Shown here: piece by piece, positions 1,962 to 47,600 of the stretch
Position numbering within the stretch: position 1 is the stretch's first letter
How the letters are laid out: each line of letters starts with the position of its first letter
DNA from: Caldilineaceae bacterium
Lineage (GTDB): Bacteria > Chloroflexota > Anaerolineae > Caldilineales > Caldilineaceae
Assembly: GCA_046259705.1 (NCBI GenBank)
Contig: JBJYXA010000173.1
Span: 4,998-64,612 of the forward strand
Reading direction: 5' to 3'
Length of the DNA: 59,615 bases
The notes under the pieces: model-generated
Database searches by the model: none
Seen by the model: the letters and a program-made list of their open reading frames with translations, nothing else
Told to the model about the DNA's origin: nothing
Program-made: the position numbers and the translations under genes

Positions 1962-4682
1962 ATGCCTACACAAGATTACTTCGGCGCCAAAGATACGTTC
2001 GAAACGGGAAGCGGCCCGGCAGTGCTCTACCGGCTGGCAGCTTTGGAAGCCGGCGGCGTGGCGAATCTGTCGCGTCTGCCCTATTCGATTCGGGTCCTGC
2101 TCGAGGCCGCACTGCGCCAAGCGGACGGTTTTGAGATCACGCGTGGGGCAGTCGAAACCATTGCACAGTGGGGTCCGGCGACGGCCGGCCAAGTAGAGAT
2201 ACCCTTCAAACCCGCACGCGTGGTTCTGCAGGATTTCACCGGCGTACCGAGCGTTGTCGATCTTGCTGCAGTGCGTAGCGCAGTGGCTCGGATGGGCGGC
2301 GATCCTGCGAAGGTAAATCCCGAGGTGCCGGTCGACCTCGTGGTTGACCATAGCGTGCAGGTGGACCGCTTTGGAAGCGTCTTCGCCCGCTTCTATAATG
2401 CAGAGCGCGAATTCGAACGCAACCGCGAGCGTTATGAGTTTCTCAAGTGGGGCCAAGAAGCCTTCGACAACTTTCGCGTCGTTCCGCCCGCCACGGGAAT
2501 CGTGCATCAAGTGAATCTCGAATACCTGGCCAGCGTCGTGCAGACGAGCCCAAATAACGGCATGCCCATCGCATACCCGGACTCCTTGGTCGGCACGGAC
2601 AGCCATACGACCATGATCAACGGTCTGGGTGTGCTCGGCTGGGGCGTTGGCGGCATAGAAGCCGAGGCAGTCATGCTTGGCCAGCCCATTTACATGCTAA
2701 TGCCGGAGGTTGTCGGCTTCAAACTGACGGGCGAACTCCCGGACGGGGCTACGGCCACCGATCTTGTACTGCGTGTGACTGAAATGTTGCGCAGGAAAGG
2801 CGTCGTCGGGAAATTCGTGGAGTATTTTGGGCCCGGGCTGAAAAACCTCAGCCTTCCGGATCGCGCTACGATTGCCAATATGGCCCCAGAGTATGGCGCC
2901 ACCATCGGCTATTTTCCCGTAGACGATGAGACCCTGCGTTATCTCGCCGGCACCGGACGAAGCGAAGAGCTTGTCGATCTGGTAGAGCGCTACAACAAAG
3001 AACAAGGGTTGTTTCATACCGCGGAGTCACCCGAACCAGAGTTCAGCGACACGCTGGAACTCGATATGACCACGGTAATGACGAGTCTTGCAGGTCCCAA
3101 ACGGCCCATGGATCGCATTGGCTTGGGTGACATGCAGCGCGTCTGGCAGGGCGGTCTCACTGCCCCAGTAGGCCCGCAAGGCTTCGGCCTGGACGAAGAG
3201 GCCGCTTCGACCACTGTACGCGTAGAACACGGCGGTCGCAGCTTTGAATTGACGCATGGAAGCGTAGTCATTGCGGCCATTACCTCATGCACGAATACCA
3301 GCAATCCTAGCGTGATGATTGGCGCCGGATTACTCGCAAAAAAGGCTGTCGAACGCGGTCTCGATGTGCAACCTTGGGTCAAGACCAGTATGGCGCCGGG
3401 GAGCACAGTGGTGACCAAATACCTAGAGGCGAGCGGACTAATTCCGTACCTCGAGGCTCTCGGCTTTCATATAGTCGGCTATGGCTGCACCACGTGCATC
3501 GGCAACAGCGGCCCGCTTCCGCCTGCTATCAGCGAAGCGATTCACATCGGCGACCTCGTTGCCGCCTCCGTACTCAGCGGCAACCGCAACTTTGAGGGCC
3601 GTATTAGTCAGGATGTACGCGCCAATTACCTGGCATCACCGCCCCTTGTCGTTGCTTACGCCATCGCCGGAACCGTGAATACGAACCTGGAAATCGATCC
3701 TGTCGGATACGATCCGAATGGCCAGCCTGTCTACCTTCGCGAGATCTGGCCCAGCCAGACGGAGATTCGAGACGCCATCCGCGCTAGTCTGCGGCCTGCG
3801 CTTTTCCACGAGGAATATGCCGACGTCTTCACACGCAATGCCGAATTTAACGACATCCCTGTGACCGGCGGCGCTCTATTCGAATGGGAACCCTACAGCA
3901 CCTACGTCAAGGAGCCTCCATTCTTCTTTATCGACCTGGACATGCCTGTCGTGGAACCAGTTCATGGCGCACGGGTCCTTGCGGTCATGCCGGACAGCAC
4001 AACAACCGACCACATTAGCCCGGCCGGGAGCATTGCGCCCGGCAGCCCTGCGGGCCGCTACTTGGAAAGCCACGGCGTCGAACCATCCGATTGGAATTCG
4101 TATGGCAGCCGTCGCGGCAACCATGAGGTGATGGTCCGTGGCACCTTCGCCAACATACGCATCAAGAACCAGATGTTGCCTGGTGTGGAAGGCGGTGTCA
4201 CCATACACATTCCTTCAGGCGAGGTGATGCCGATCTTTGATGCGGCCGAGCGATACGCAGAAACGCACACACCGCTGATAATCATCGCCGGCAAGGAGTA
4301 CGGCACGGGCTCCAGCCGCGACTGGGCCGCGAAAGGACCCCAGCTACAAGGGGTGCGCGCGGTCATCGCAGAAAGCTTCGAGCGCATTCACCGCAGCAAC
4401 TTGGTCGGAATGGGCGTCCTTCCACTGCAGTTCCTGGACGGTGACTCCGCCAAGAAACTCGGACTCACAGGCTACGAAACGTACGAGATCCTCGGTTTGA
4501 GCGAAGACTTGATGCCTGCTCAGACTTATACCGTGCGCGCGGTAGACGACGATGGTGCAGTCACACAGTTTGACGTGGTCAGCCGGATTGATACGCCTGT
4601 CGAAATCAATTACTACAAGAATGGCGGTATTCTCCACACGGTATTGCGGCGAATCGTCCGTGACCAATTGGGGCTCCAGTAG
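1962..4682 (+). CDS. acnA: Aconitate hydratase A
   Basis: About 906 aa. Fe-S ligand motifs are present ([20 protein letters not shown]), and the N- and C-terminal regions are typical of AcnA/IRP. ATG at 1962 is preceded by AAGGGA. Confidence 0.95.
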
Positions 4683-4696
4683 AAAAGCGAGTGTAG

Positions 4697-6502
4697 ATGA
4701 TGAGCAACCCCGCGAAATCAACAACATATGTCACGGAACCAACGGGCTGGGATCTGAGCGACCTGCTTCCGGAACCGTCCGAAGCGGTGATTGACGAACG
4801 GCTGGCAGCGCTGGAAACAGAGGTCGCCGCATTGGAGCAACAGCGAGATCTGCTTGACCCGGAAATGGATCCAGGACTGCTGATACAGATTGTGGAGCAG
4901 TATGAATGTCTGGTCGAGCAGATCTACGTTCTTGGCTCCTACGGCAGCCTGTGGTTTGCGGCTGAAACACAGTCTGCCGCCGCGCTCAACTACCGCAACC
5001 GCATGATGCAGACGCTGACGCAGGCGCAGAACCGCACGCTATTCTTCGATCTGTGGTGGAAATCACTTGACGATAACGAGGCCGCCGCGCTGTTGCCCAG
5101 CGCTGACGCGTATTCGGACTATCGCCATTTTCTCGAGGACATGCGGCGTACCAAGCCGTATACGAAGGAAGAGAAGATCGAGCAGGTCATCAACATCAAG
5201 GATGCGAATGGCATCAGCGCGGTCATCACACTATACGACATGCTGACGAGCCGTCTCGAGTTCACGCTGGACGTAGGCGGGGAGAAGCGTTCATTGACAC
5301 GTGACGCGCTCATGTCCTATGTCCACTCTCCCGATCCCGGCCTGCGCGCCGCGGCCTATCAGGAGCTTTATCGTGTCTACATGGGCGAGGCAAATATCCT
5401 GGCACAGATGTACGCAAACCGCGTACGCGACTGGTATATGGAACAGGTTGAATTACGCGGCTATGAAACTCCGATTTCCGTTCGTAACGTCAGCAACGAC
5501 ATCCCTGATGAGGCGGTCGACACGCTGCTGAACGTGTGTAGGAATAACGTCGGCGTCTTCCAGCGTTACTTCCGGCTCAAGGCAGGTTGGCTGGGAGTGG
5601 ACAAGCTGCGACGGTATGACATCTACGCGCCCCTCACCGAGTCGGACCGCGAGATAGCGTATGGCGATGCCATCGAGATGGTCTTGGAGACATTTGAAGA
5701 GTTCTCTCCCCAGATCGCGGAACAGGCGGAGCGCGTATTCGCCCGTGATCATATCGATTCGGAAGTGCGCAAAGGAAAACGAGGCGGCGCCTTCTGTGCG
5801 ACCGTATTGCCAAGCCAGACACCTTGGGTACTCATGAACTTCACAGGGAAGGTGCGCGATGTCGCGACGATGGCACACGAATTGGGGCACGCTATCCACT
5901 CCATGATGGCTGCGCATCACAGCGTGCTGACGCAGCATTCCGCCCTGCCTTTGGCCGAAACCGCATCCGTCTTTGCCGAAATGTTACTGACGGACCGCTT
6001 GCTGGAGGAAGAGGAAGACCCGCTTGTCAAACGCGAAATCCTTGCCACGGCGGTCGACGATATGTACGCGACAGTACTTCGCCAAGCCTATTTCGTAGCA
6101 TTCGAACGCACGGCGCATGAAGCTATTCTCGCCAATAAGTCCCAGGACGAACTGAACGCGCTGTACGCCCAGAATCTGGCAGAGCAGTTCGGCGACAGCG
6201 TGGAAATAGGTGACGAGTTCCAATATGAATGGGTGAGCATACCTCATATTTTCCACACACCCTTCTATTGTTACGCCTATAGTTTTGGACAACTTCTCGT
6301 ATTGGCCCTCTATCGACGCTTCCAACAGGAGGGTGACGCGTTCAAGCCGGCGTATCTGCGCTTGCTCGCACACGGCGGCTCCGCGCGTCCGGTCGAGATC
6401 TTGGAGGAGGCGGGCATCGATATCTCCGATCCCGCATTTTGGCAGGGCGGATTCGACGTCATCAGTGACATGATCAGCCAGCTCGAGGATATCGAATTTT
6501 AG
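4697..6502 (+). CDS. pepF: Oligoendopeptidase F family (M3B) metallopeptidase
   Basis: 601 aa with the zinc motif MAHELGHAIH and M3B-like overall layout. It starts 15 nt after the acnA stop. Confidence 0.85.
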   Translation: MMSNPAKSTTYVTEPTGWDLSDLLPEPSEAVIDERLAALETEVAALEQQRDLLDPEMDPGLLIQIVEQYECLVEQIYVLGSYGSLWFAAETQSAAALNYRNRMMQTLTQAQNRTLFFDLWWKSLDDNEAAALLPSADAYSDYRHFLEDMRRTKPYTKEEKIEQVINIKDANGISAVITLYDMLTSRLEFTLDVGGEKRSLTRDALMSYVHSPDPGLRAAAYQELYRVYMGEANILAQMYANRVRDWYMEQVELRGYETPISVRNVSNDIPDEAVDTLLNVCRNNVGVFQRYFRLKAGWLGVDKLRRYDIYAPLTESDREIAYGDAIEMVLETFEEFSPQIAEQAERVFARDHIDSEVRKGKRGGAFCATVLPSQTPWVLMNFTGKVRDVATMAHELGHAIHSMMAAHHSVLTQHSALPLAETASVFAEMLLTDRLLEEEEDPLVKREILATAVDDMYATVLRQAYFVAFERTAHEAILANKSQDELNALYAQNLAEQFGDSVEIGDEFQYEWVSIPHIFHTPFYCYAYSFGQLLVLALYRRFQQEGDAFKPAYLRLLAHGGSARPVEILEEAGIDISDPAFWQGGFDVISDMISQLEDIEF

Positions 6503-6887: not shown

Positions 6888-7049
6888 GTGAAATATGTTG
6901 TCTTTGCTCCAGTCTTCGTTGCACTTCTGTTGGCTGCCTGTGCACCAGCATCTGCACCCGTAGCAACGCCGGAAGCTGCACAATCTAGCGGCGGCGAAAT
7001 GGCTACCAATAGCGCGCAACTGAATAGGTACCATCGGAGCGGCTTCTAA
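6888..7049 (+). CDS. Small lipoprotein (53 aa), function unknown
   Basis: The GTG start is preceded by AGGGAG. The signal peptide plus lipobox reads MKYVVFAPVFVALLLAAC. The mature part is short and Ala/Pro/Ser-rich. Confidence 0.5.
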   Translation: MKYVVFAPVFVALLLAACAPASAPVATPEAAQSSGGEMATNSAQLNRYHRSGF

Positions 7050-7088
7050 TATCTGTCCCTCGACATTTCTTCGGGAGTAAGAGATAGC

Positions 7089-7640
7089 ATGAATTTGATA
7101 GACAAAAACGTACTGAACAGAGCGGTAGAAGGTGTGAACGTGCAGCCCGGGAGATTTGCCGATCAGCTTCTGGAGGGGAGGACGCTCCTGATATTTCTGC
7201 GCCACTTTGGTTGACCTTTTTGCCACGAGACTGTGAAAGAACTGCGTAAGGTATTCACCACTAATGCCTATGACCTGAAGATTCTCTTTGTGTATCAGGG
7301 AACTGTGGATCAGGGCAACGTCTTCTTTCAGCAGTTGTGGCCGGAGGCACGTGCTGTCTCCGATCCGTCGAAGTATCTCTATCAGGCGTTTGGCTTGGAG
7401 AGAGCGAGCCTGCGAGAGATAATTGGCCCGGAGGTCGCGGCCTGTGGGATCCGCGCTATGAAAAACGGGTCGTTTGGTGGGCGACCGGTCGGTGATACTC
7501 GTATGATGCCCGGCGCCTTTCTGGTGGACGGCGAGGAAATTCTGTGGCGTCACGATTATCGTCACATAGCAGACCATCCGGATTTTGAACAAGTGGTTTC
7601 AAACACAGCCAAGAATGGGGCTGGGAGGAACTCTCCATGA
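7089..7640 (+). CDS. Peroxiredoxin-like 2 (PRXL2/PAMM, AhpC-TSA_2 type) selenoprotein with in-frame TGA (Sec) at 7212..7214
   Basis: ATG 7089 is in the same frame as ORF 7233..7640, with no other stop between them. Read-through gives ...RTLLIFLRHFG-U-PFCHETVKELRKV, where TGA falls on the first Cys of the thioredoxin-fold CxxC. The downstream sequence (YLYQAFGLER...GGRPVGDTRMMPGAFLVDGEEILWRH) resembles PRXL2A-type proteins. Without read-through the gene loses its redox motif. Confidence 0.7.
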
Positions 7641-7819
7641 ATTCTCGAACTCAAATTGTCAAAGGCTCCATACTTCTGGCTGCGGCAATTTCATTTGCAT
7701 TGTCAGTATGGCTCTGGTTCACTGGTTCAAGGGAGCAAGGGCTCTTCGTCGCAATCTGGGTCCCTTCCATCCTAAGCCTCGGTGCTCTTGTCCTGGCCGG
7801 GAGCGGACATAATGAGTGA
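7637..7819 (+). CDS. Small membrane protein (60 aa, 2 predicted TM helices)
   Basis: Its ATG overlaps the upstream stop (ATGA). There are two hydrophobic segments: ILLAAAISFALSVWLWF and LFVAIWVPSILSLGALVLAG. Confidence 0.5.
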   Translation: MNSRTQIVKGSILLAAAISFALSVWLWFTGSREQGLFVAIWVPSILSLGALVLAGSGHNE

Positions 7820-7964
7820 CACGGTCCTTTTTGTCTGGGGGACGGTTGCGTTCCTGGTCGCCGTTGGTCCTCTTGCAATTGCAGCATTCCTGGATTATCG
7901 GGACCGCGCCAACAAGCGTGCCCTCGATCGCGCGGCTGGACTTGGCGAAGATGTGAGTAACTGA
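7812..7964 (+). CDS. Small membrane protein (50 aa, 1 predicted TM helix)
   Basis: ATG 7812 overlaps the upstream stop (ATGAGTGA) and GGGAG lies 10 nt upstream. The TM segment is VLFVWGTVAFLVAVGPLAIAAFL. An alternative GTG start exists at 7782. Confidence 0.45.
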   Translation: MSDTVLFVWGTVAFLVAVGPLAIAAFLDYRDRANKRALDRAAGLGEDVSN

Positions 7965-8439: not shown

Positions 8440-9240
8440 ATGGCACCATCGAATGCACCGGCTGCCGATACCGGCGCTTGCGCAACGAATGACGAGGCCG
8501 CGCCGGAAGCACGTGGGACGGCCGCGCGGGCGGAGCCAGTGGTGCTGCTTTTCTTGTGCAGGCGCAGCACGGCCCGCCAGGTTGACGCCACTTGGCCAGA
8601 GGCCTGGAGAGTCCAAGAGCCAACATCCCCTATTGCGCTGGAAATTCATTTCGATTCACAGCAACAGATTCATCTCTTGGTGGTTACCAGCCAACGGGCG
8701 GCCCTACGCCACCTGAGCGTTCATCCATCACAGGCCATATTGGTTGAACTTGATAGCCGGCCCCACAGCCGAGAACACTTCTGCCACGTTCTGCGCCGTC
8801 GTATTCCGGCTATGCCGATTTTCGCAGTAGGCAAGAAGCCGCCAACGGGCCGCTTTTCTTTCGACGGCTACATACCTCTGCCCTTAACCCGGGAACTTGC
8901 TGAGTCTGCCGCCGAGAGTCTGCAAGAAGAGACACCATCGCAGATACTAGAGTGCGGCCCGTTCGAGTTGAACCTGGCCACGCGAACCGTGCATACACCG
9001 GACGGCTCTCGTCGACTAACGCCAAAACTGTGTGCACTACTCCAGCTACTTATGAACAACTCCAATGTTGTAGTAACTCGCCCGGAGATTATGTCCACGA
9101 TCTGGGAAACGTCGTACCTTGACGACACGCGGACGCTGGACGTACACGTGCGCTGGCTACGTGAGTCAATCGAGCCGGATCCCTATAACCCGAAGCACTT
9201 GGTCACCGTTAGGGGCAAAGGATATACGTTTCGATGTTGA
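8440..9240 (+). CDS. OmpR/PhoB-type winged-helix transcriptional regulator with degenerate receiver-like N-terminus
   Basis: The C-terminal domain is clear: ...FELNLATRTVHTPDGSRRLTPKLCALLQLLMNN...TRTLDVHVRWLRESIEPDP...LVTVRGKGYTF. The N-terminal part lacks the acidic DD pocket and the conserved Lys. The start codon is uncertain. Confidence 0.7.
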   Translation: MAPSNAPAADTGACATNDEAAPEARGTAARAEPVVLLFLCRRSTARQVDATWPEAWRVQEPTSPIALEIHFDSQQQIHLLVVTSQRAALRHLSVHPSQAILVELDSRPHSREHFCHVLRRRIPAMPIFAVGKKPPTGRFSFDGYIPLPLTRELAESAAESLQEETPSQILECGPFELNLATRTVHTPDGSRRLTPKLCALLQLLMNNSNVVVTRPEIMSTIWETSYLDDTRTLDVHVRWLRESIEPDPYNPKHLVTVRGKGYTFRC

Positions 9241-24948: not shown

Positions 24949-27207
24949 CTAGACCGGCTTTACCACATCGCACAGCAAAGTTTTGTAAATGGGGAAGCCG
25001 GAAATCGGATCGAAATGCGCAGCCTCCGTCAGCTCATTGACGTTGGCTCTACGCCACGCTTCGTTGCCGAGCGGACCACCGCCGCCCATATTCGCCTCGA
25101 CTACGCCCGGTACAATCCTATCGCTCACGCGCGCAAGGTAGGGTACCCGGCCGCGGGGTGTCACCACGAGAACTTCATCACCGTCCGCGATGCCCCGCTG
25201 TTCGGCATCGCGAGGGTGCAAGAGTACCAGTGGCGCAGGCGCCTTGCGAGACAGCCCCGGTATGTTGTGAAGCTGCGAACGAAAATCTGTTTGCGTGCGC
25301 GCACCGGAGTTGAATACGAGCGGATACGTCTGTGCCAGCTCCGGCGCATTCAACGGACCGATGGCAGGTTCCGTGTACACGGGCAGCGCATCATAACCAT
25401 AGCGCGCAAGCAGGCTGGAGGCAATCTCAAGCTTGCCTGTTGGCGTCTCAAAACCGGGGCGGCCGTCTTTGCGCAATAGCCCCCGCTCCCACTTGCGGTA
25501 GACCATTTCGGCGCTGGGCAAAGTGATGCCGTCCTGGCTTGCCCGCAACATTTCAACGTCGATATCGCTTTCCTCAAGGACCAATTCGAGCATGTCGTCT
25601 ACATTCTGCGGATAGCGGTCACCGTAGCCTAGCCGTTCCGCGATCGCTGCGTAGATCTGCGCGTCGGGTCTCGCCTCACCCACCGGCTCTATGATGCGGG
25701 GACGCCACTGGATGAAGTTGCCGCGCATCACGTAGGACTCGATCTCGAACAGTGTAGCGGACGGCAGCACGATGTCGGCATACATGGCATCGGCCGTTAT
25801 GAAATGATCTACAACGACCAGAAAATCCAGCGCCTCGAAACAGCGCCGCCAAAGCGCCGGCTGCGGATACGAGGTAAGCATGGATGCGCCGCCGATGACC
25901 ATGGCGCGAACAAGATATGGCTCTCCCTCCAGGATGGCCGCGGGCAATGCCATCGAATGCGCCTCGCGCCGAAAGTGATAGTAGAGGGGAAACTTGTCCT
26001 TACCGACGGGATCGACGCCGAGCGGAGGCGCGATCTTCGTGCCGTGTATCGGGAATTCACTATTCGGCATCTTGAAATTTACACCGCCCGGCACATCGAG
26101 CTTGCCTGCGAGCGCCCATAGAATCAGCGCTGCACGTATGTTCTGAACGCCGCTGTCGGTATATTCCAGCCCAGTGTACATTACCTGCGCCGCGCCTCGA
26201 GCGCCGGCAACCCTCCGCGCCAGATTGCGCACGCTATCTGCTGGCACCCAGGTGATGCGCTCGACTTCTTCTGGCGTGAACTGCTGCACGTACTCACGCA
26301 ACTCGTCGAACCCAACCGTCCATTGCTCAACGAAATCCCGGTCGTATAACTGCTCTTCGATGAGCACGCGTATCATGCCCAACGCCAGCGCACCATCTGT
26401 TCCAGGCCGGATCCCTATCCATTGCGCGTCCGTGGCCTTGGCCGTCTCGGTCAGTCGATGGTCGATACACACCACCTCTGCGCCGCGCCGTTTTGCGCGC
26501 AAAATCCTGCGCAGCATCGTCGGCGGTGAGTCCGTAGCCGGGTTCGCACCCCACACGACGATCAGGTCCGCATTCTCGACGTCGTCGAACATGTCTATCC
26601 AGTAGGCGCCAAATGTCGTCTGCGGCGCCAAAAACGCCCGCGCCACATAGCAGATTGCCCCTACGCCCGTCGTGTTTGGCGAACCCAAGGGAAAGAATAA
26701 GCTGGATGCTGACGATTCTCGAATGTCTGCCGGGCCGAAGAGGTCCTGCAGCGAACGCTCGAAGCTGCCGCGCCCCGTGTACATACAGACGGCCTCGGGA
26801 CCGTATTCCGCGGCCACCTGGCGCACACGCGCCGCGATGGTGTCCAGCGCCTCATCCCAAGAGATCGCTTCGAACGCCTCCGTTCCTTTGGGACCGACCC
26901 GCCTCAGGGGGGTCAGCACCCGGTCAGGTGAATAGACTATTTCCGGCGCGTGCATCCCGCGCGGGCAACAGATTCCTCGTGGGTGCCCCGCGCGCGGGGC
27001 AACGGACGTCAACACTCCATCCGTGACAGTCGCGACAATGCTACAGCCCGAGTCGCAGACGCCACATAAGCCAGGTACCGTCTCTATTCTCGAACCGTCA
27101 CCCTTGGCTTTTCCGTTTCCCGCAATGGCAGCGCTTCGCTGGGATGTGGCTTCCGGGCTCACCATCTCTGTCCTTTTTCCAGATTTCTTGGGATACATAA
27201 GGATCAC
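24949..27207 (-). CDS. Molybdopterin (bis-MGD) oxidoreductase, cytoplasmic, with N-terminal 4Fe-4S motif
   Basis: The motif C-x2-C-x3-C...C is present (LCGVCDSGCS...GICCPRG). MopB-like core segments are seen (VVWGANPA, GIRPGTDGAL). No Tat signal is present. The GTG start overlaps the upstream stop (GTGA), and alternative ATG starts lie 9 and 42 nt downstream. Confidence 0.85.
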   Translation of the reverse strand: MILMYPKKSGKRTEMVSPEATSQRSAAIAGNGKAKGDGSRIETVPGLCGVCDSGCSIVATVTDGVLTSVAPRAGHPRGICCPRGMHAPEIVYSPDRVLTPLRRVGPKGTEAFEAISWDEALDTIAARVRQVAAEYGPEAVCMYTGRGSFERSLQDLFGPADIRESSASSLFFPLGSPNTTGVGAICYVARAFLAPQTTFGAYWIDMFDDVENADLIVVWGANPATDSPPTMLRRILRAKRRGAEVVCIDHRLTETAKATDAQWIGIRPGTDGALALGMIRVLIEEQLYDRDFVEQWTVGFDELREYVQQFTPEEVERITWVPADSVRNLARRVAGARGAAQVMYTGLEYTDSGVQNIRAALILWALAGKLDVPGGVNFKMPNSEFPIHGTKIAPPLGVDPVGKDKFPLYYHFRREAHSMALPAAILEGEPYLVRAMVIGGASMLTSYPQPALWRRCFEALDFLVVVDHFITADAMYADIVLPSATLFEIESYVMRGNFIQWRPRIIEPVGEARPDAQIYAAIAERLGYGDRYPQNVDDMLELVLEESDIDVEMLRASQDGITLPSAEMVYRKWERGLLRKDGRPGFETPTGKLEIASSLLARYGYDALPVYTEPAIGPLNAPELAQTYPLVFNSGARTQTDFRSQLHNIPGLSRKAPAPLVLLHPRDAEQRGIADGDEVLVVTPRGRVPYLARVSDRIVPGVVEANMGGGGPLGNEAWRRANVNELTEAAHFDPISGFPIYKTLLCDVVKPV

Positions 27208-28802
27208 GCACGCTGCGCTTCGCGTTGAATATGCGCCAGTTCATCCCGAACTGCATCCGTCAACGGCGCGGGTTGATGTGATTCCATGATAGATATCGTC
27301 TTGTCGCGCAGGCGCTCTTCCAGCGTTAGCGCTCCGTTGGACTCCCAGTGCGTATAGCGGCGGCGTTCGAACAGCGTCGGATACCAGTCGTCCCGGTAGT
27401 GCCGCAGCGTGTGCTCCGTGGCGATGAAGTCTCCGCCAGGGCCGACTTCGTGAATCACTTCCAATGCAAGCATCTCATCGCTCAAATCAACTCCGGCCAT
27501 GAAACGACTGTGCATGTCGACCATCTCGGCGGTAAAGACTATCAGTTCGGGTGACGTGGTCAATCCCGCCTCGAGATATCCTACGTCGTGTACGAGGTGG
27601 ATGCCCATCATCAAGGCATCGCGCACCTGATACGCCGCATCCGCTGCTGCCTGGCCGTCCATGACATGCGAATCGCTGCAACTGGAGTAGCCCCAGGAGG
27701 GCAATCCATAGTATCTTGCCATGTCCGCTACCAGGGCTCGAGCCAGTTGGAATTCCGGAGCGCCGTAGACGCTAATCGTCGTCCGCAGATCCAGATGATG
27801 TAGGCCGGTACCGAAGACGAAGGGCGCTCCTTGGCTCTTCAATTGATGCATCACAAGGCTGCTCAAGACTTCCGCGTTGCCGAGTGCAAGCCCGCCTGCG
27901 AGCGTCACCGGGGCGGTGCCGCCCATCATGGGCGCCGGCGAATGAACGACGGGTAGACGCTCTTGCGCCATGTACAACAACTTTTCCGTAGCCGTGCGTG
28001 TATGGACCAGCGGCGTCGTCGGTTCAGAATAAAGTAATATCGTCGGATTCAGACGGAGGGCATCCATGCCGCCGGCGGCTGCAGCCGCCATCGCCGCAAT
28101 GGCCTCACAGTCTGCGCGGTCGTTCGCTACGAATACGGCCGGTTTTTCGGTGTGCTCCAGCATCAATCCATATTGTAGTTGATACTGGCTGCCGGGCGTG
28201 ATTCCTTCCGGGATTCCCATGGACATCACAAAACCGATCTGCGGCAGCGCATCACACAACCGTACACATGCGGCGATATCCTCGACCGTGAAGTCCCGAT
28301 GTCCTTCTTTTGGATCCAGGTAGTGTGGACAATCGGATCCAGGTCCGAAACTGACGTTGGCTCCGCTGAGTTCGACCGCTACTTCGTCGCTGCCGCGCTT
28401 GCATAGCGCTAACCGTGACGGCGCCTGCCGCAGCGCCCATTCCGTCAGCGCAGGCGGAAGTTTCACCAAATCACCGTCGCTGACGTGTGCGCCGGCCTCC
28501 TGCAACAGGTGCAGCGCCTCGGGTTCCTGGACGCGCACGCCGGTACGCCTCAATATCTCCAACGACGCGTGGTGAAGCCGTTCACAACCGGCGTCGTCGA
28601 GCAGGCTGAATCGCGGGATGTATTGTCGGGAATCGTTCAATTCGCGGCTCGAATTCGTAGTGGTGAGGCAGACGAACAGCCAGTGCCGAAAGAGACTATA
28701 CCAGAAGGAACCGAGTCCAAACAGACGAGCAGTTGCTCTCTGCCTCCACGAGGAAACATATATGCCCGCAACCATTATACATCCGACTCGGGGTAGAGCC
28801 AC
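27204..28802 (-). CDS. MttB-superfamily (trimethylamine methyltransferase-like) protein, non-pyrrolysine type
   Basis: The N-terminal signature matches the family (FSLLDDAGCERLHHASLEILRRTGVRV) and the length and C-terminus are typical. There is no in-frame TAG. The first 55 codons or so are hydrophobic and atypical, so the true start may be the TTG at 28640. Confidence 0.8.
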   Translation of the reverse strand: MALPRVGCIMVAGIYVSSWRQRATARLFGLGSFWYSLFRHWLFVCLTTTNSSRELNDSRQYIPRFSLLDDAGCERLHHASLEILRRTGVRVQEPEALHLLQEAGAHVSDGDLVKLPPALTEWALRQAPSRLALCKRGSDEVAVELSGANVSFGPGSDCPHYLDPKEGHRDFTVEDIAACVRLCDALPQIGFVMSMGIPEGITPGSQYQLQYGLMLEHTEKPAVFVANDRADCEAIAAMAAAAAGGMDALRLNPTILLYSEPTTPLVHTRTATEKLLYMAQERLPVVHSPAPMMGGTAPVTLAGGLALGNAEVLSSLVMHQLKSQGAPFVFGTGLHHLDLRTTISVYGAPEFQLARALVADMARYYGLPSWGYSSCSDSHVMDGQAAADAAYQVRDALMMGIHLVHDVGYLEAGLTTSPELIVFTAEMVDMHSRFMAGVDLSDEMLALEVIHEVGPGGDFIATEHTLRHYRDDWYPTLFERRRYTHWESNGALTLEERLRDKTISIMESHQPAPLTDAVRDELAHIQREAQRA

Positions 28803-38434: not shown

Positions 38435-39565
38435 CTACCGTCGGTTGGTCAATTGGTGGATCTTTTCGCGGGTTTCGCGCCACGATATCTTGCTCAAACC
38501 CAGCTTCTGACGAAGCTGTTCTTCGGGCAATCCATGCCGGTAGTCGATGACCGCAGCGGTCCAGCGCAGCGTCTCGAATCCTACCTGTCCGGATCGAATG
38601 CCGGCCCGCTCTCCAACATCGCGCAGAACATATTCTAGGTTCCGCGGCGTACATTCGAACAAATGCGTCGATGGCTTGTACTGCTCCAGGTACTGCTTCA
38701 GCGGCGGAACGATGTTGGGATGAAGCGTCAGTGTCCGATTCTTGTGCGAATTGCGCTCGTCAGCGTATTGGATGCGCACACTGGGTGAACTTTGGTGCGA
38801 CGCCTCTATATCCGAGATTAGCAGGTTAGCGCATTCCGCCTTTTTCATGCCTGTCTGCAGCAAAAGACTAACCAGAAGATACGGGCGCGCATCCGCCCTT
38901 GGCCGGTCCCAAAGATAGTCCTGAGCTGCGCGTACAACCCGGTTGACTTCATCATCGCGCAGGATAGTCGGCAGAGGGGTACGCGCGGATTGTTGAATCA
39001 CGGGTTCAGCAGGATCGCTGCCCAAAATGCCGACTCCGTAGAGCCAGCCGAAGAATACCTTGAGTGTCGTGATGCGTCGCGTGAGCGTCTTGGCGCTGCA
39101 AGGCTTGCCCCGGCCGCTTTGCAACCATTCCAGGTACTCGTCCAGGTCGCGCGTGCTGATACTCATCAGCTTCGTATCCGCGCCGGCATACTCCGTGAAG
39201 ATCTTCAGGTCGTTGCGAAACGCCTTGATCGTATTCTCGCTGAAACCCTTTCGCAGCATGTATTCGTCAAAGGCCTTGCCCGCTGTCTCAAGAGAGCTAT
39301 CCGCGCGTAACGGTGGGGGCAAGGCAATTTCAGGCTGGTCTTGACCGTCGCCGTCTGTCGCGCCGGCAGCAGCATCGGCGGCATGCGGCGACTCTGGCGT
39401 CTTGCCGTTACGCTGCTCGGGCTCCACATTCCTCGCCGCGCCGGCCGGCTCATCTATCTCCGCATGTGGCACGGACTCGGTTGCGTCCGAGACCTCTTGA
39501 TCCTGGACGGCATCCATGGAATGCCCGCTGGCGTGCGCGTGCTCATTCTGTTCTGTTGTCGACAT
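38435..39565 (-). CDS. Tyrosine recombinase (XerC/D-like) homolog with degenerate catalytic residues
   Basis: The SAM-like N-domain (AFRNDLKIFTEY) and the C-terminal integrase fold are recognisable. Box I reads TGMKKAE where GLRxxE is expected. Box II reads FETLRWTAAV...LGLSKISWRETREKIHQL, with no Tyr at the nucleophile position. The N-terminal 90 aa or so are acidic and low complexity. Confidence 0.65.
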   Translation of the reverse strand: MSTTEQNEHAHASGHSMDAVQDQEVSDATESVPHAEIDEPAGAARNVEPEQRNGKTPESPHAADAAAGATDGDGQDQPEIALPPPLRADSSLETAGKAFDEYMLRKGFSENTIKAFRNDLKIFTEYAGADTKLMSISTRDLDEYLEWLQSGRGKPCSAKTLTRRITTLKVFFGWLYGVGILGSDPAEPVIQQSARTPLPTILRDDEVNRVVRAAQDYLWDRPRADARPYLLVSLLLQTGMKKAECANLLISDIEASHQSSPSVRIQYADERNSHKNRTLTLHPNIVPPLKQYLEQYKPSTHLFECTPRNLEYVLRDVGERAGIRSGQVGFETLRWTAAVIDYRHGLPEEQLRQKLGLSKISWRETREKIHQLTNRR

Positions 39566-46487: not shown

Positions 46488-47600
46488 CTAGGAGACTTCG
46501 ATGCCTTCACCCGCAACGACGTCGCCAATCTCCCAGCATTGCAGACGTCGCTTGAAGGCTGTCTGGCGGAAGCGGTCCAGTTCGTGTTCTGGGACGGCGA
46601 GCAACAATCCGCCACTTGTTTCCGCCTCCCACATCAACGTTCGAATAGGCATGGGCACATCCGGCGCAAAATGCACGTGCTCGCCGAACTCGCTCGGGTT
46701 GAGCGTTGAGCCTCGAGTCAGGTAGCCGGCCTCTATGTACTTGCGCACTCCGGAAAGCGCCGGTACTTCCGCTGATCGAATCCTCAGTGCGGCGCCGGTT
46801 TCGGTACTACTGGCTATGGCCATTTCAGCAGCGTGACCAAGTAGTCCGAACCCGGTTATGTCCGTAGCGCCGCGCACATTCGCCTCTTGAGCCACCTGGC
46901 TCGCGGTACGATTGAGATTCAGCATGGAAATGACTGCCGCGTCCAGATCATGCACGTCTATATCCGGTTTGCCTTCCATGCGCCTTTCTGCGCGGTGTTC
47001 CTGTGTCTCGCCCCTGCCTGCAACCTTGGCTGCCGTGGTGATAATGCCGGTGCCAAGCGGTTTGGTCAGGAACAGTCTGTCGCCTGGACGGGCGCCGCCT
47101 TTGCGCATTATGCGCGACGGGTCCACCCAGCCTGTTACGCTTAGGCCGTAGAAAGGTTCCGGACTGACGACTGTGTGCCCGCCGGTAATGGCCGCCTTGG
47201 CCTCGCGTACTTTCGTTGCGCCGCCTGCGAAAATCTGCACGATGTAGTCGTTGGGAAATTCATTGGGGAAGCCGGCGACATTCAGACATGCGACGACATC
47301 ACCACCCATGGCATAGACGTCGCTCATCGCGTTCACTGCGGCAATAGCGCCGAAGGTCCAAGGATCGTCTACCACCGGAGTAAAGAAGTCCACCGTCTTG
47401 ATCAGCGCCCGCGACTCGTCGATGCGGATAACGGCTGCATCATCCGGTTCGCCCAGGCCAATCAGGACTTCGGGGTATTCAGTTGCCGGAAAGAATCCGG
47501 CTAGTTGTCGCACGACCTGCGACAATGTCCCTGGCGGGAGCTTAGACGCTCAACCCGCACAAGCGACAGTGGCGGTCAGTGCCAACTCGTCTTCAGACAA
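46488..47600 (-). CDS. selD: Selenide, water dikinase (selenophosphate synthetase), Sec-containing form with TGA at 47550..47552
   Basis: ORF-track ORF 46488..47525 has a SelD body (DDAAVIRI, AIAAVNAMSDVYAMGG, PurM-like fold) but lacks the catalytic N-terminus. Reading upstream in frame through TGA gives M(TTG 47600)SEDELALTATVACAG-U-ASKLPPGTLSQVV. This places U at residue 17 and K at residue 20, the positions of Cys17 and Lys20 in E. coli SelD. GAGGA lies 7 nt upstream of the TTG, and an in-frame TAG at 47619-47621 bounds the ORF. Confidence 0.8.
47505..47525 (-). promoter_or_regulatory. SECIS-like hairpin inside selD
   Basis: The minus-strand RNA is UUGUCGCA-GGUCG-UGCGACAA, an 8-bp perfect stem with a 5-nt loop. 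The stem starts 24 nt 3' of the UGA, putting the loop 32 nt 3' of it. GCAGGUC(G)UGC resembles the apical part of the E. coli fdhF SECIS (GCAGGUCUGC). Confidence 0.55.

Follow-up and report, generated by a model that had tools for sequence, protein, structure and literature searches.

A UGA-interrupted SelL-related redox protein gene of a Chloroflexota bacterium very probably encodes a UxxC selenoprotein

Here we show that positions 7089-7640 of the window (the whole stretch of 59,615 nucleotides analysed) are almost certainly a single gene whose internal UGA (7212-7214) is decoded rather than terminating, and that the residue inserted at this codon is, on comparative sequence evidence, very probably selenocysteine (Sec). 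The explanation that best covers all observations, and one we hold with high confidence, is a 183-residue SelL-related redox protein of the thioredoxin fold in which UGA is translated as Sec by the cell's machinery. This evidence has the form of the standard comparative selenoprotein signature; it excludes a pseudogene and a sequencing error as well as a genuine start at 7233.

On the forward strand, the frame that runs from ATG 7089-7091 to the stop TGA 7638-7640 is broken once, at TGA 7212-7214, as seen in the sequence and its translation (...LLIFLRHFG-*-PFCHETVKEL...). The earlier note on this DNA had placed ATG 7089 and the open reading frame (ORF) 7233..7640 in one frame with this TGA as the sole stop, and all of its coordinates proved accurate. 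The read-through product is 183 aa long, carries the TGA as codon 42, and reads ...TLLIFLRHFG-U-PFCHETVKELRK...; the mechanical ORF list cuts the gene in two, giving 7089..7214 (41 aa) and 7233..7640 (135 aa, GTG start). The parts of the gene are:

7089 to 7640, forward strand: complete SelL-related redox protein gene, 183 codons plus stop, predicted Sec at codon 42 (single frame, NF040769 match, end-to-end homologs)
7089 to 7211, forward strand: N-terminal 41 codons, comprising the beta-1 strand and the lead-in to the redox motif, which gene finders call as a separate 41-aa ORF
7212 to 7214, forward strand: TGA very probably read as selenocysteine (U42), the putative attacking residue of the U-P-F-C motif; in the alignment it occupies the column of the first Cys in FLRHFGCxFC
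7221 to 7223, forward strand: TGC, conserved Cys45, the presumed resolving residue of the UxxC motif
7638 to 7640, forward strand: true stop of the gene, also TGA, overlapping the ATG of the next ORF (ATGA; sequence and translation)

Among the in-frame TGAs of the window that have coding-like flanks of at least 35 codons, 7212 ranked first; the other candidates are antisense to or out of frame with known genes. When an N-terminal profile (HMM), built from the N-terminal columns of 28 Cys-containing homologs only, was run against the 1196 stop-to-stop fragments of all six frames of the window, 7050-7211 was the sole match (E = 9e-20). The peptide encoded by 7089-7211 is therefore clearly homologous to the N-terminus of the family, where the earlier note had allowed that a dissimilar peptide would undo its reading.

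With Cys put in place of the stop, the product matches NF040769 ('SelL-related redox protein') at 144.7 bits against a curated cutoff of 120 (E = 2.1e-42), and the alignment spans the TGA, with residues 8-171 falling on model positions 3-171 of 173. Pfam AhpC-TSA_2 (PF13911) is matched at 37.4 bits (gathering cutoff 27), and the classical AhpC-TSA and Redoxin models are matched at sub-threshold level only (PF00578, 20.2 bits versus 26). Together with this near whole-model match, the window protein shares the FLRHFG-[C/U]-xFC, WPEARAV, GD..MPG, and DHPD blocks with the NF040769 family; nothing structural differs, the window copy being a Sec form that gene callers have split.

Homologs were sought in a collection of 5.8 billion proteins and fell into two kinds. 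Full-length homologs (175-195 aa, >90% query coverage, 41-59% identity) align end to end; their motif is FLRHFG-C-xFC-RE, and its first Cys shares the column of the TGA. The window motif, FLRHFG-U-PFC, fits the family pattern FLRHFG-[C/U]-x-F-C following beta-1. Short homologs (125-136 aa) align over the C-terminal two thirds only, at higher identity (53-67%), and all begin at MKELR, the exact counterpart of GTG 7233. Across 77 full-length sequences, C42 and C45 are at least 90% conserved, and the Cys45 position is occupied by Cys in 50/53 Sec forms and 32/33 Cys forms. A scan of metagenomic contigs with the window protein returned a single partial near-identical copy, which does not include the TGA region. 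Three Sec forms were seen that have no second motif Cys, namely L010 and L045 (U-VF-P) and L020 (U-MF-A), with the motif at about 3124-3135 in each locus; judged by sequence, these UxxP and UxxA forms would have to be one-Sec enzymes or use a different resolving thiol.

The distribution of codons at the motif position was surveyed using one genome per GTDB species, which yielded 80 species-representative loci:

motif codon TGA: 45/80 loci
motif codon TGC or TGT: 34/80 loci
motif codon unresolved: 1/80 loci

The TGA forms belong mostly to Chloroflexota (Anaerolineae, Caldilineaceae, Chloroflexia), with a few in Acidobacteriota/Blastocatellia and Calditrichia. Both residues that the earlier note had suggested seeking at codon 42 thus occur there, Cys in the full-length homologs and TGA itself in 45/79 resolved species-level loci. 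Its central claim, an in-frame UGA read as Sec at the first CxxC position of a PRX_like2/SelL-related thioredoxin-fold protein, is borne out by the family match, the Cys alignment, and the recurrence of TGA.

Examination of the DNA at 13 loci behind nine of the short homologs revealed an in-frame TGA and a conserved N-terminal region in 13/13, and at several of these loci the gene calls are split into 41 aa and 135 aa, as in the window. Homologs that start at the equivalent of 7233, which the earlier note had named as a possible argument against its reading, are accordingly truncated gene calls with an in-frame TGA upstream. Among the closest metagenomic loci (these 13 and P0002/L095), TGA is found in 14/14. 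The best full-length match, P0002 (JGI Ga0055446_10022944; L095 165-740), has Trp at the motif position in the public call (HFGWPFC) and TGA in its DNA, so the gene caller apparently applied a TGA=Trp code to this short contig; this annotation artefact gives a Sec form the appearance of a full-length 'W' variant.

In all 56 Sec forms compared (56/56), 33 codons upstream of the UGA are kept open, and conservation is higher before the UGA than after it, with pairwise identities of 62.7% over the 20 aa upstream versus 47.6% over the 20 aa downstream. Judged from these sequence comparisons, the peptide upstream of the TGA is under purifying selection. In a neighbour-joining tree, the window groups with L001/L082 (Chloroflexia MAG, 64% identity) and metagenomic loci in a clade made up entirely of Sec forms, and at least nine switches between Sec and Cys are needed over the tree. 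Repeated switching of this kind is typical of selenoprotein families. Alternation of Sec and Cys at a redox-active site is, moreover, the standard signature by which selenoproteins are recognised (PMC13188914).

The structural setting of the codon was assessed on an AF2 model of P0002, which is 59% identical to the window protein and belongs to the same clade; the model (76-sequence alignment, pLDDT 91.2, pTM 0.88) is that of a homolog and not of the window protein itself. Motif residue 51 of P0002 lies between a strand at 41-45 (LLIFL, beta-1) and a helix at 52-67 (helix 1), and in this model the Sec position is the N-terminus of helix 1, the canonical attacking-Cys site of CxxC in the thioredoxin fold. 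A product starting at GTG 7233 would be devoid of beta-1 and of the entire redox motif, as the earlier note had stated and as both the alignment and the homolog model confirm. The best PDB matches, by sequence profile and by Foldseek, are human PRXL2B (prostamide/prostaglandin F synthase) entries 9us9 and 9usa (E = 1.4e-7 and 3.3e-7, TM about 0.65-0.76, approximately 17-18% identity), followed by Bcp/PrxQ peroxiredoxins, AhpE, and ResA/TlpA-type thiol-disulfide oxidoreductases. The likeness to PRXL2 that had been proposed from the sequence is thus right at the level of the superfamily, where PRXL2B (9us9) aligns with its CxxC in register; the relationship is distant, and the direct family is the bacterial SelL-related one. 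PRXL2B has the same fold and an aligned motif, LRRFGCVVCR compared with LRHFGUPFCH in the window, but PRXL2B and eukaryotic PRX_like2 proteins use Cys, and their prostaglandin endoperoxide substrate is without an obvious bacterial counterpart.

The chemistry, the substrate, the role of Cys45, and the identity of the RNA element that recruits SelB are inferred. UGA 7212-7214 would be decoded by SelA, SelB, and tRNA-Sec, and the selenophosphate would come from the SelD encoded in the window. In the proposed cycle, Sec42 is the nucleophile of the U-P-F-C motif and acts on an oxidised substrate, which may be a peroxide/endoperoxide or a disulfide; the selenenylsulfide that it would then make with Cys45 is reduced again by a thiol reductant.

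Evidence that Sec is used by the source organism is provided by a second gene on the opposite strand:

46488 to 47600, reverse strand: selD (selenophosphate synthetase), with TGA 47552-47550 at codon 17 in a U-A-S-K motif (TIGR00476, in-frame translation)
47505 to 47525, reverse strand: selD SECIS hairpin with an 8-bp stem and a GGUCG loop at +36 to +40 from the UGA (fold)

As called, the selD ORF (46488..47525, reverse strand, 345 aa) matches TIGR00476 at 301.9 bits, starting only at model position 32; read through, it scores 325.6 bits over model positions 2-309. The in-frame extension runs from TTG 47600, probably the true selD start (...LTATVACAG-TGA-ASKLPPG...), and TGA 47552-47550 falls on the catalytic Cys/Sec position (UxxK, a known Sec form). 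With its start placed at TTG 47525 in the ORF track, selD is the second mis-called selenoprotein gene in the window. The fold of 47490-47552 (reverse strand) reaches an MFE of -21 kcal/mol and shows the hairpin in its MFE and centroid structures alike; this hairpin is a textbook SECIS and serves as a same-genome reference for SelB recognition. A SelD that is itself Sec-dependent implies that the genome has a working Sec-insertion system, and selD and the SelL-related gene together mark the source organism as a selenium user. Within the 59.6-kb window there is no selA, selB, or tRNA-Sec, nor any other tRNA gene. TGA is not reassigned genome-wide, because it also serves the SelL-related gene and many of its relatives as their ordinary stop.

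Prediction of a SECIS downstream of 7212, which had been proposed as a check on the Sec reading, gave no convincing element; the candidate hairpins are weak and without covariation support. MFE folds of the 64-nt and 101-nt segments starting at the UGA are no better than those of shuffled sequences (z = -0.56 and +0.79, respectively), and RNAalifold applied to 53 Sec forms stacked in register predicted zero pairs and no consensus structure. Synonymous-codon shuffles, evaluated by bSECIS-model hairpin and by MFE, revealed no excess stability in the Sec forms (mean z -0.2, p = 0.31), and Cys controls behaved alike (-0.49). The best bSECIS-model hairpin of the window gene reaches only -2.1 kcal/mol, and its strongest hairpin (+34 to +61, -6.5 kcal/mol) has a G-less loop 41 nt from the UGA. 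Best-hairpin energy was rejected as a discriminator between Sec and Cys forms, given that Cys forms fold better on account of their higher GC content. Rfam scans (window-wide at the gathering threshold and permissive at both UGA sites) produced no match to a SECIS family, a result that is uninformative here because the clear SECIS of selD was missed as well.

Two candidates were considered further:

7233 to 7258 (+22 to +47), forward strand: candidate SECIS S1, unproven, the hairpin of the earlier note; loop GCGUAA at +33 to +38, -4.5 kcal/mol, outside the MFE fold
7218 to 7241, forward strand: candidate SECIS S4, unproven; two-part stem (+7 to +10 with +27 to +30, +13 to +16 with +21 to +24), AGAC loop, -2.8 kcal/mol, in the MFE fold

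The hairpin that the earlier note had found by eye (GTGAA 7233-7237 paired with TTCAC 7254-7258, plus inner ACU/GGU pairs) can indeed be drawn with the energy listed for S1, but it gained no support as a SECIS and has no place in the MFE fold. Across the family, 54.8% of S1 cells are paired versus 51.7% in a control with the partners slid by -3; the corresponding covariation scores are 0.208 and 0.200. For S4, pairing of 71.9% of cells across the Sec forms equals that of the column-shuffle control (71.6%), with no covariation. Pairing of its lower helix is more frequent among Sec forms than among Cys forms (0.77 versus 0.62, p = 1e-4, calculated without phylogenetic control), a difference that tracks Thr/Lys versus Met/Ala differences in the protein, and its loop lies 13 nt after the UGA, under the 16-37 nt of the consensus model (PMC13188914). 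S1 and S4 each break one constraint of that model, and either one is doubtful as a functional SECIS.

Hairpins at +33 to +47 with AGGU or GGUC loops, which resemble a SECIS in several lineages (L015, L022, L057, L068, L077, L041, and L020), were rejected as a family-wide SECIS, as equivalents are present in Cys forms; their equal occurrence there is probably due to palindromic Arg/Ala codons in the conserved LRxxA peptide. The window version of this hairpin is unstable (+2.9 to +3.7 kcal/mol). Cys-form loci such as L002, L030, L036, L039, L053, and L074 have hairpins at the same +33 to +47 distance from the Cys codon, and these are either fossil SECIS elements left after conversion of Sec to Cys or a by-product of the palindromic Arg/Ala codons.

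A subset of predicted bacterial SECIS elements fails the consensus model (PMC13188914), and since that model misses some bacterial elements, the gap in the SECIS evidence weakens the Sec reading without overturning it. It is conceivable, if rather unlikely, that the SelL-related proteins constitute a large, mainly Chloroflexota UxxC selenoprotein family outside the published prokaryotic catalogues, one that may recruit SelB via a non-consensus element. One possibility for such an element is a short stem-loop that begins only about 7 nt from the UGA and whose pairs are intact more often in Sec forms than in Cys forms; if real, it would contrast with the canonical selD SECIS of the same genome.

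One alternative is that UGA is read through without Sec, whereby a near-cognate or suppressor tRNA, possibly a tRNA-Sec-like tRNA-Cys, would insert Trp or Cys with no need for SelB or a SECIS. The gene has no recognisable SECIS even though selD of the same genome has a textbook one, and 34 species show Cys to be functionally acceptable there; we nevertheless consider this alternative very improbable. The genome encodes a Sec-dependent selD, which implies that Sec decoding is operating; TGA terminates this very gene and many of its relatives, and any read-through must therefore be local; and alternation of Sec and Cys at the redox site is what is expected of a selenoprotein. Many predicted bacterial SECIS elements, moreover, do not satisfy the consensus model (PMC13188914).

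A second alternative takes TGA 7212-7214 as a real stop, leaving either a pseudogene or a functional 135-aa protein initiated at GTG 7233. Gene callers give exactly this model in the window and in more than a dozen relatives, and the search for a strong downstream SECIS was negative. The truncated product, however, would have neither beta-1 nor any of the redox motif; across 56 independent Sec forms, the 41 upstream codons are open and more conserved than the downstream region; the stop coincides every time with the catalytic Cys codon and with no other; and the upstream peptide matches the family N-terminus with the E value given above. We regard a real stop as extremely improbable. The last alternative, a sequencing or assembly error for TGC or TGT, draws on TGA being one base away from a Cys codon and is effectively refuted, since the same TGA recurs in 59 further independent loci drawn from different assemblies and samples.

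The preferred reading, decoding of UGA 7212-7214 as Sec, leaves concepts unchanged: the gene encodes an ordinary bacterial selenoprotein that has been mis-annotated. The family is already curated as an NCBI HMM and named after selenoprotein L, and the window gene adds to it a mis-annotated UxxC selenoprotein. The presence of selenoproteins in Chloroflexi has been known since 2006 (PMC1794560), and among predicted bacterial selenoproteins no class is more common than the UxxC proteins of the thioredoxin fold (PMC2398784; PMC13188914). Like the catalogued bacterial thioredoxin-fold selenoproteins, the window protein has Sec in place of the first motif Cys, Cys-containing homologs, and a predicted redox function. 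A catalogue from 2026 lists a 'Peroxiredoxin-like family protein' under cd02970 (PRX_like2) with UxxS, and includes neither NF040769 nor a UxxC form (PMC13188914); the window protein differs from that entry in being UxxC. A literature search returned no paper mentioning 'SelL-related' or NF040769.

Eukaryotic (marine) SelL, which has been described as a Prx-like protein (PMC2398784), belongs to the same superfamily and has Sec in the redox motif at the start of helix 1, a comparison made by family name and that publication. SelL has two Sec residues (a UxxU diselenide), whereas the window protein has one (UxxC), and a second in-frame TGA at +3, as in SelL proper, occurs in 0/56 Sec forms.

The practical consequence is one of annotation. 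The gene is either split (41 aa plus about 135 aa) or translated with Trp under a wrong code, in the contig of the window as well as in dozens of Chloroflexota, Acidobacteriota, and Calditrichia assemblies, and these systematic calls hide a redox enzyme with an active-site Sec. Interest in the family lies in the breadth of its Sec use and in the missing canonical SECIS. Given that Sec and Cys alternate at a single codon (45 versus 34 species, at least nine switches), the family offers a convenient natural test set that bears on the conditions under which Sec is preferred over Cys and on the form of a Chloroflexota SECIS.

The SelL-related gene is flanked by an oligoendopeptidase F gene (4697-6502) and a winged-helix regulator (8440-9240), in surroundings of housekeeping genes such as aconitase and RelA/SpoT. 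Two small ORFs follow it directly:

7637 to 7819, forward strand: small membrane ORF of 60 aa containing two hydrophobic segments and coupled translationally to the gene via ATGA; conserved
7812 to 7964, forward strand: small membrane ORF of 50 aa containing one hydrophobic segment, with a start that overlaps the previous stop (ATGAGTGA); conserved

Conservation of the 60-aa ORF and its ATGA overlap is confined to the close all-Sec clade (L001, L082-L084, L086, L093/L094, and L095), as is that of the 50-aa ORF. Pfam and NCBIfam gave no match for 7637..7819, nor for the 7816-7956 call that overlaps 7812..7964.

Directly upstream, at 6888-7049 (forward strand), is a 53-aa ORF with a lipoprotein-type signal (VKYVVFAPVFVALLLAAC...). 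In the syntenic loci L082 and L083, a fasciclin-domain gene of approximately 340 aa occupies its place, and the 53-aa ORF may be a remnant or a much shortened version of such a gene.

Elsewhere in the window, at 24949-28802 (reverse strand), an MTTB-family (trimethylamine methyltransferase-like) gene (27204-28802) overlaps a molybdopterin oxidoreductase gene (24949-27207) by 4 nt. Similarity of the oxidoreductase to formate dehydrogenase alpha, PhsA, and DmsA stays below the equivalog cutoffs, and neither ORF is interrupted by an in-frame TGA or TAG. A tyrosine recombinase/phage-integrase gene is located at 38435-39565 (reverse strand), between genes for a LuxR-Kelch protein and an H+-pyrophosphatase.
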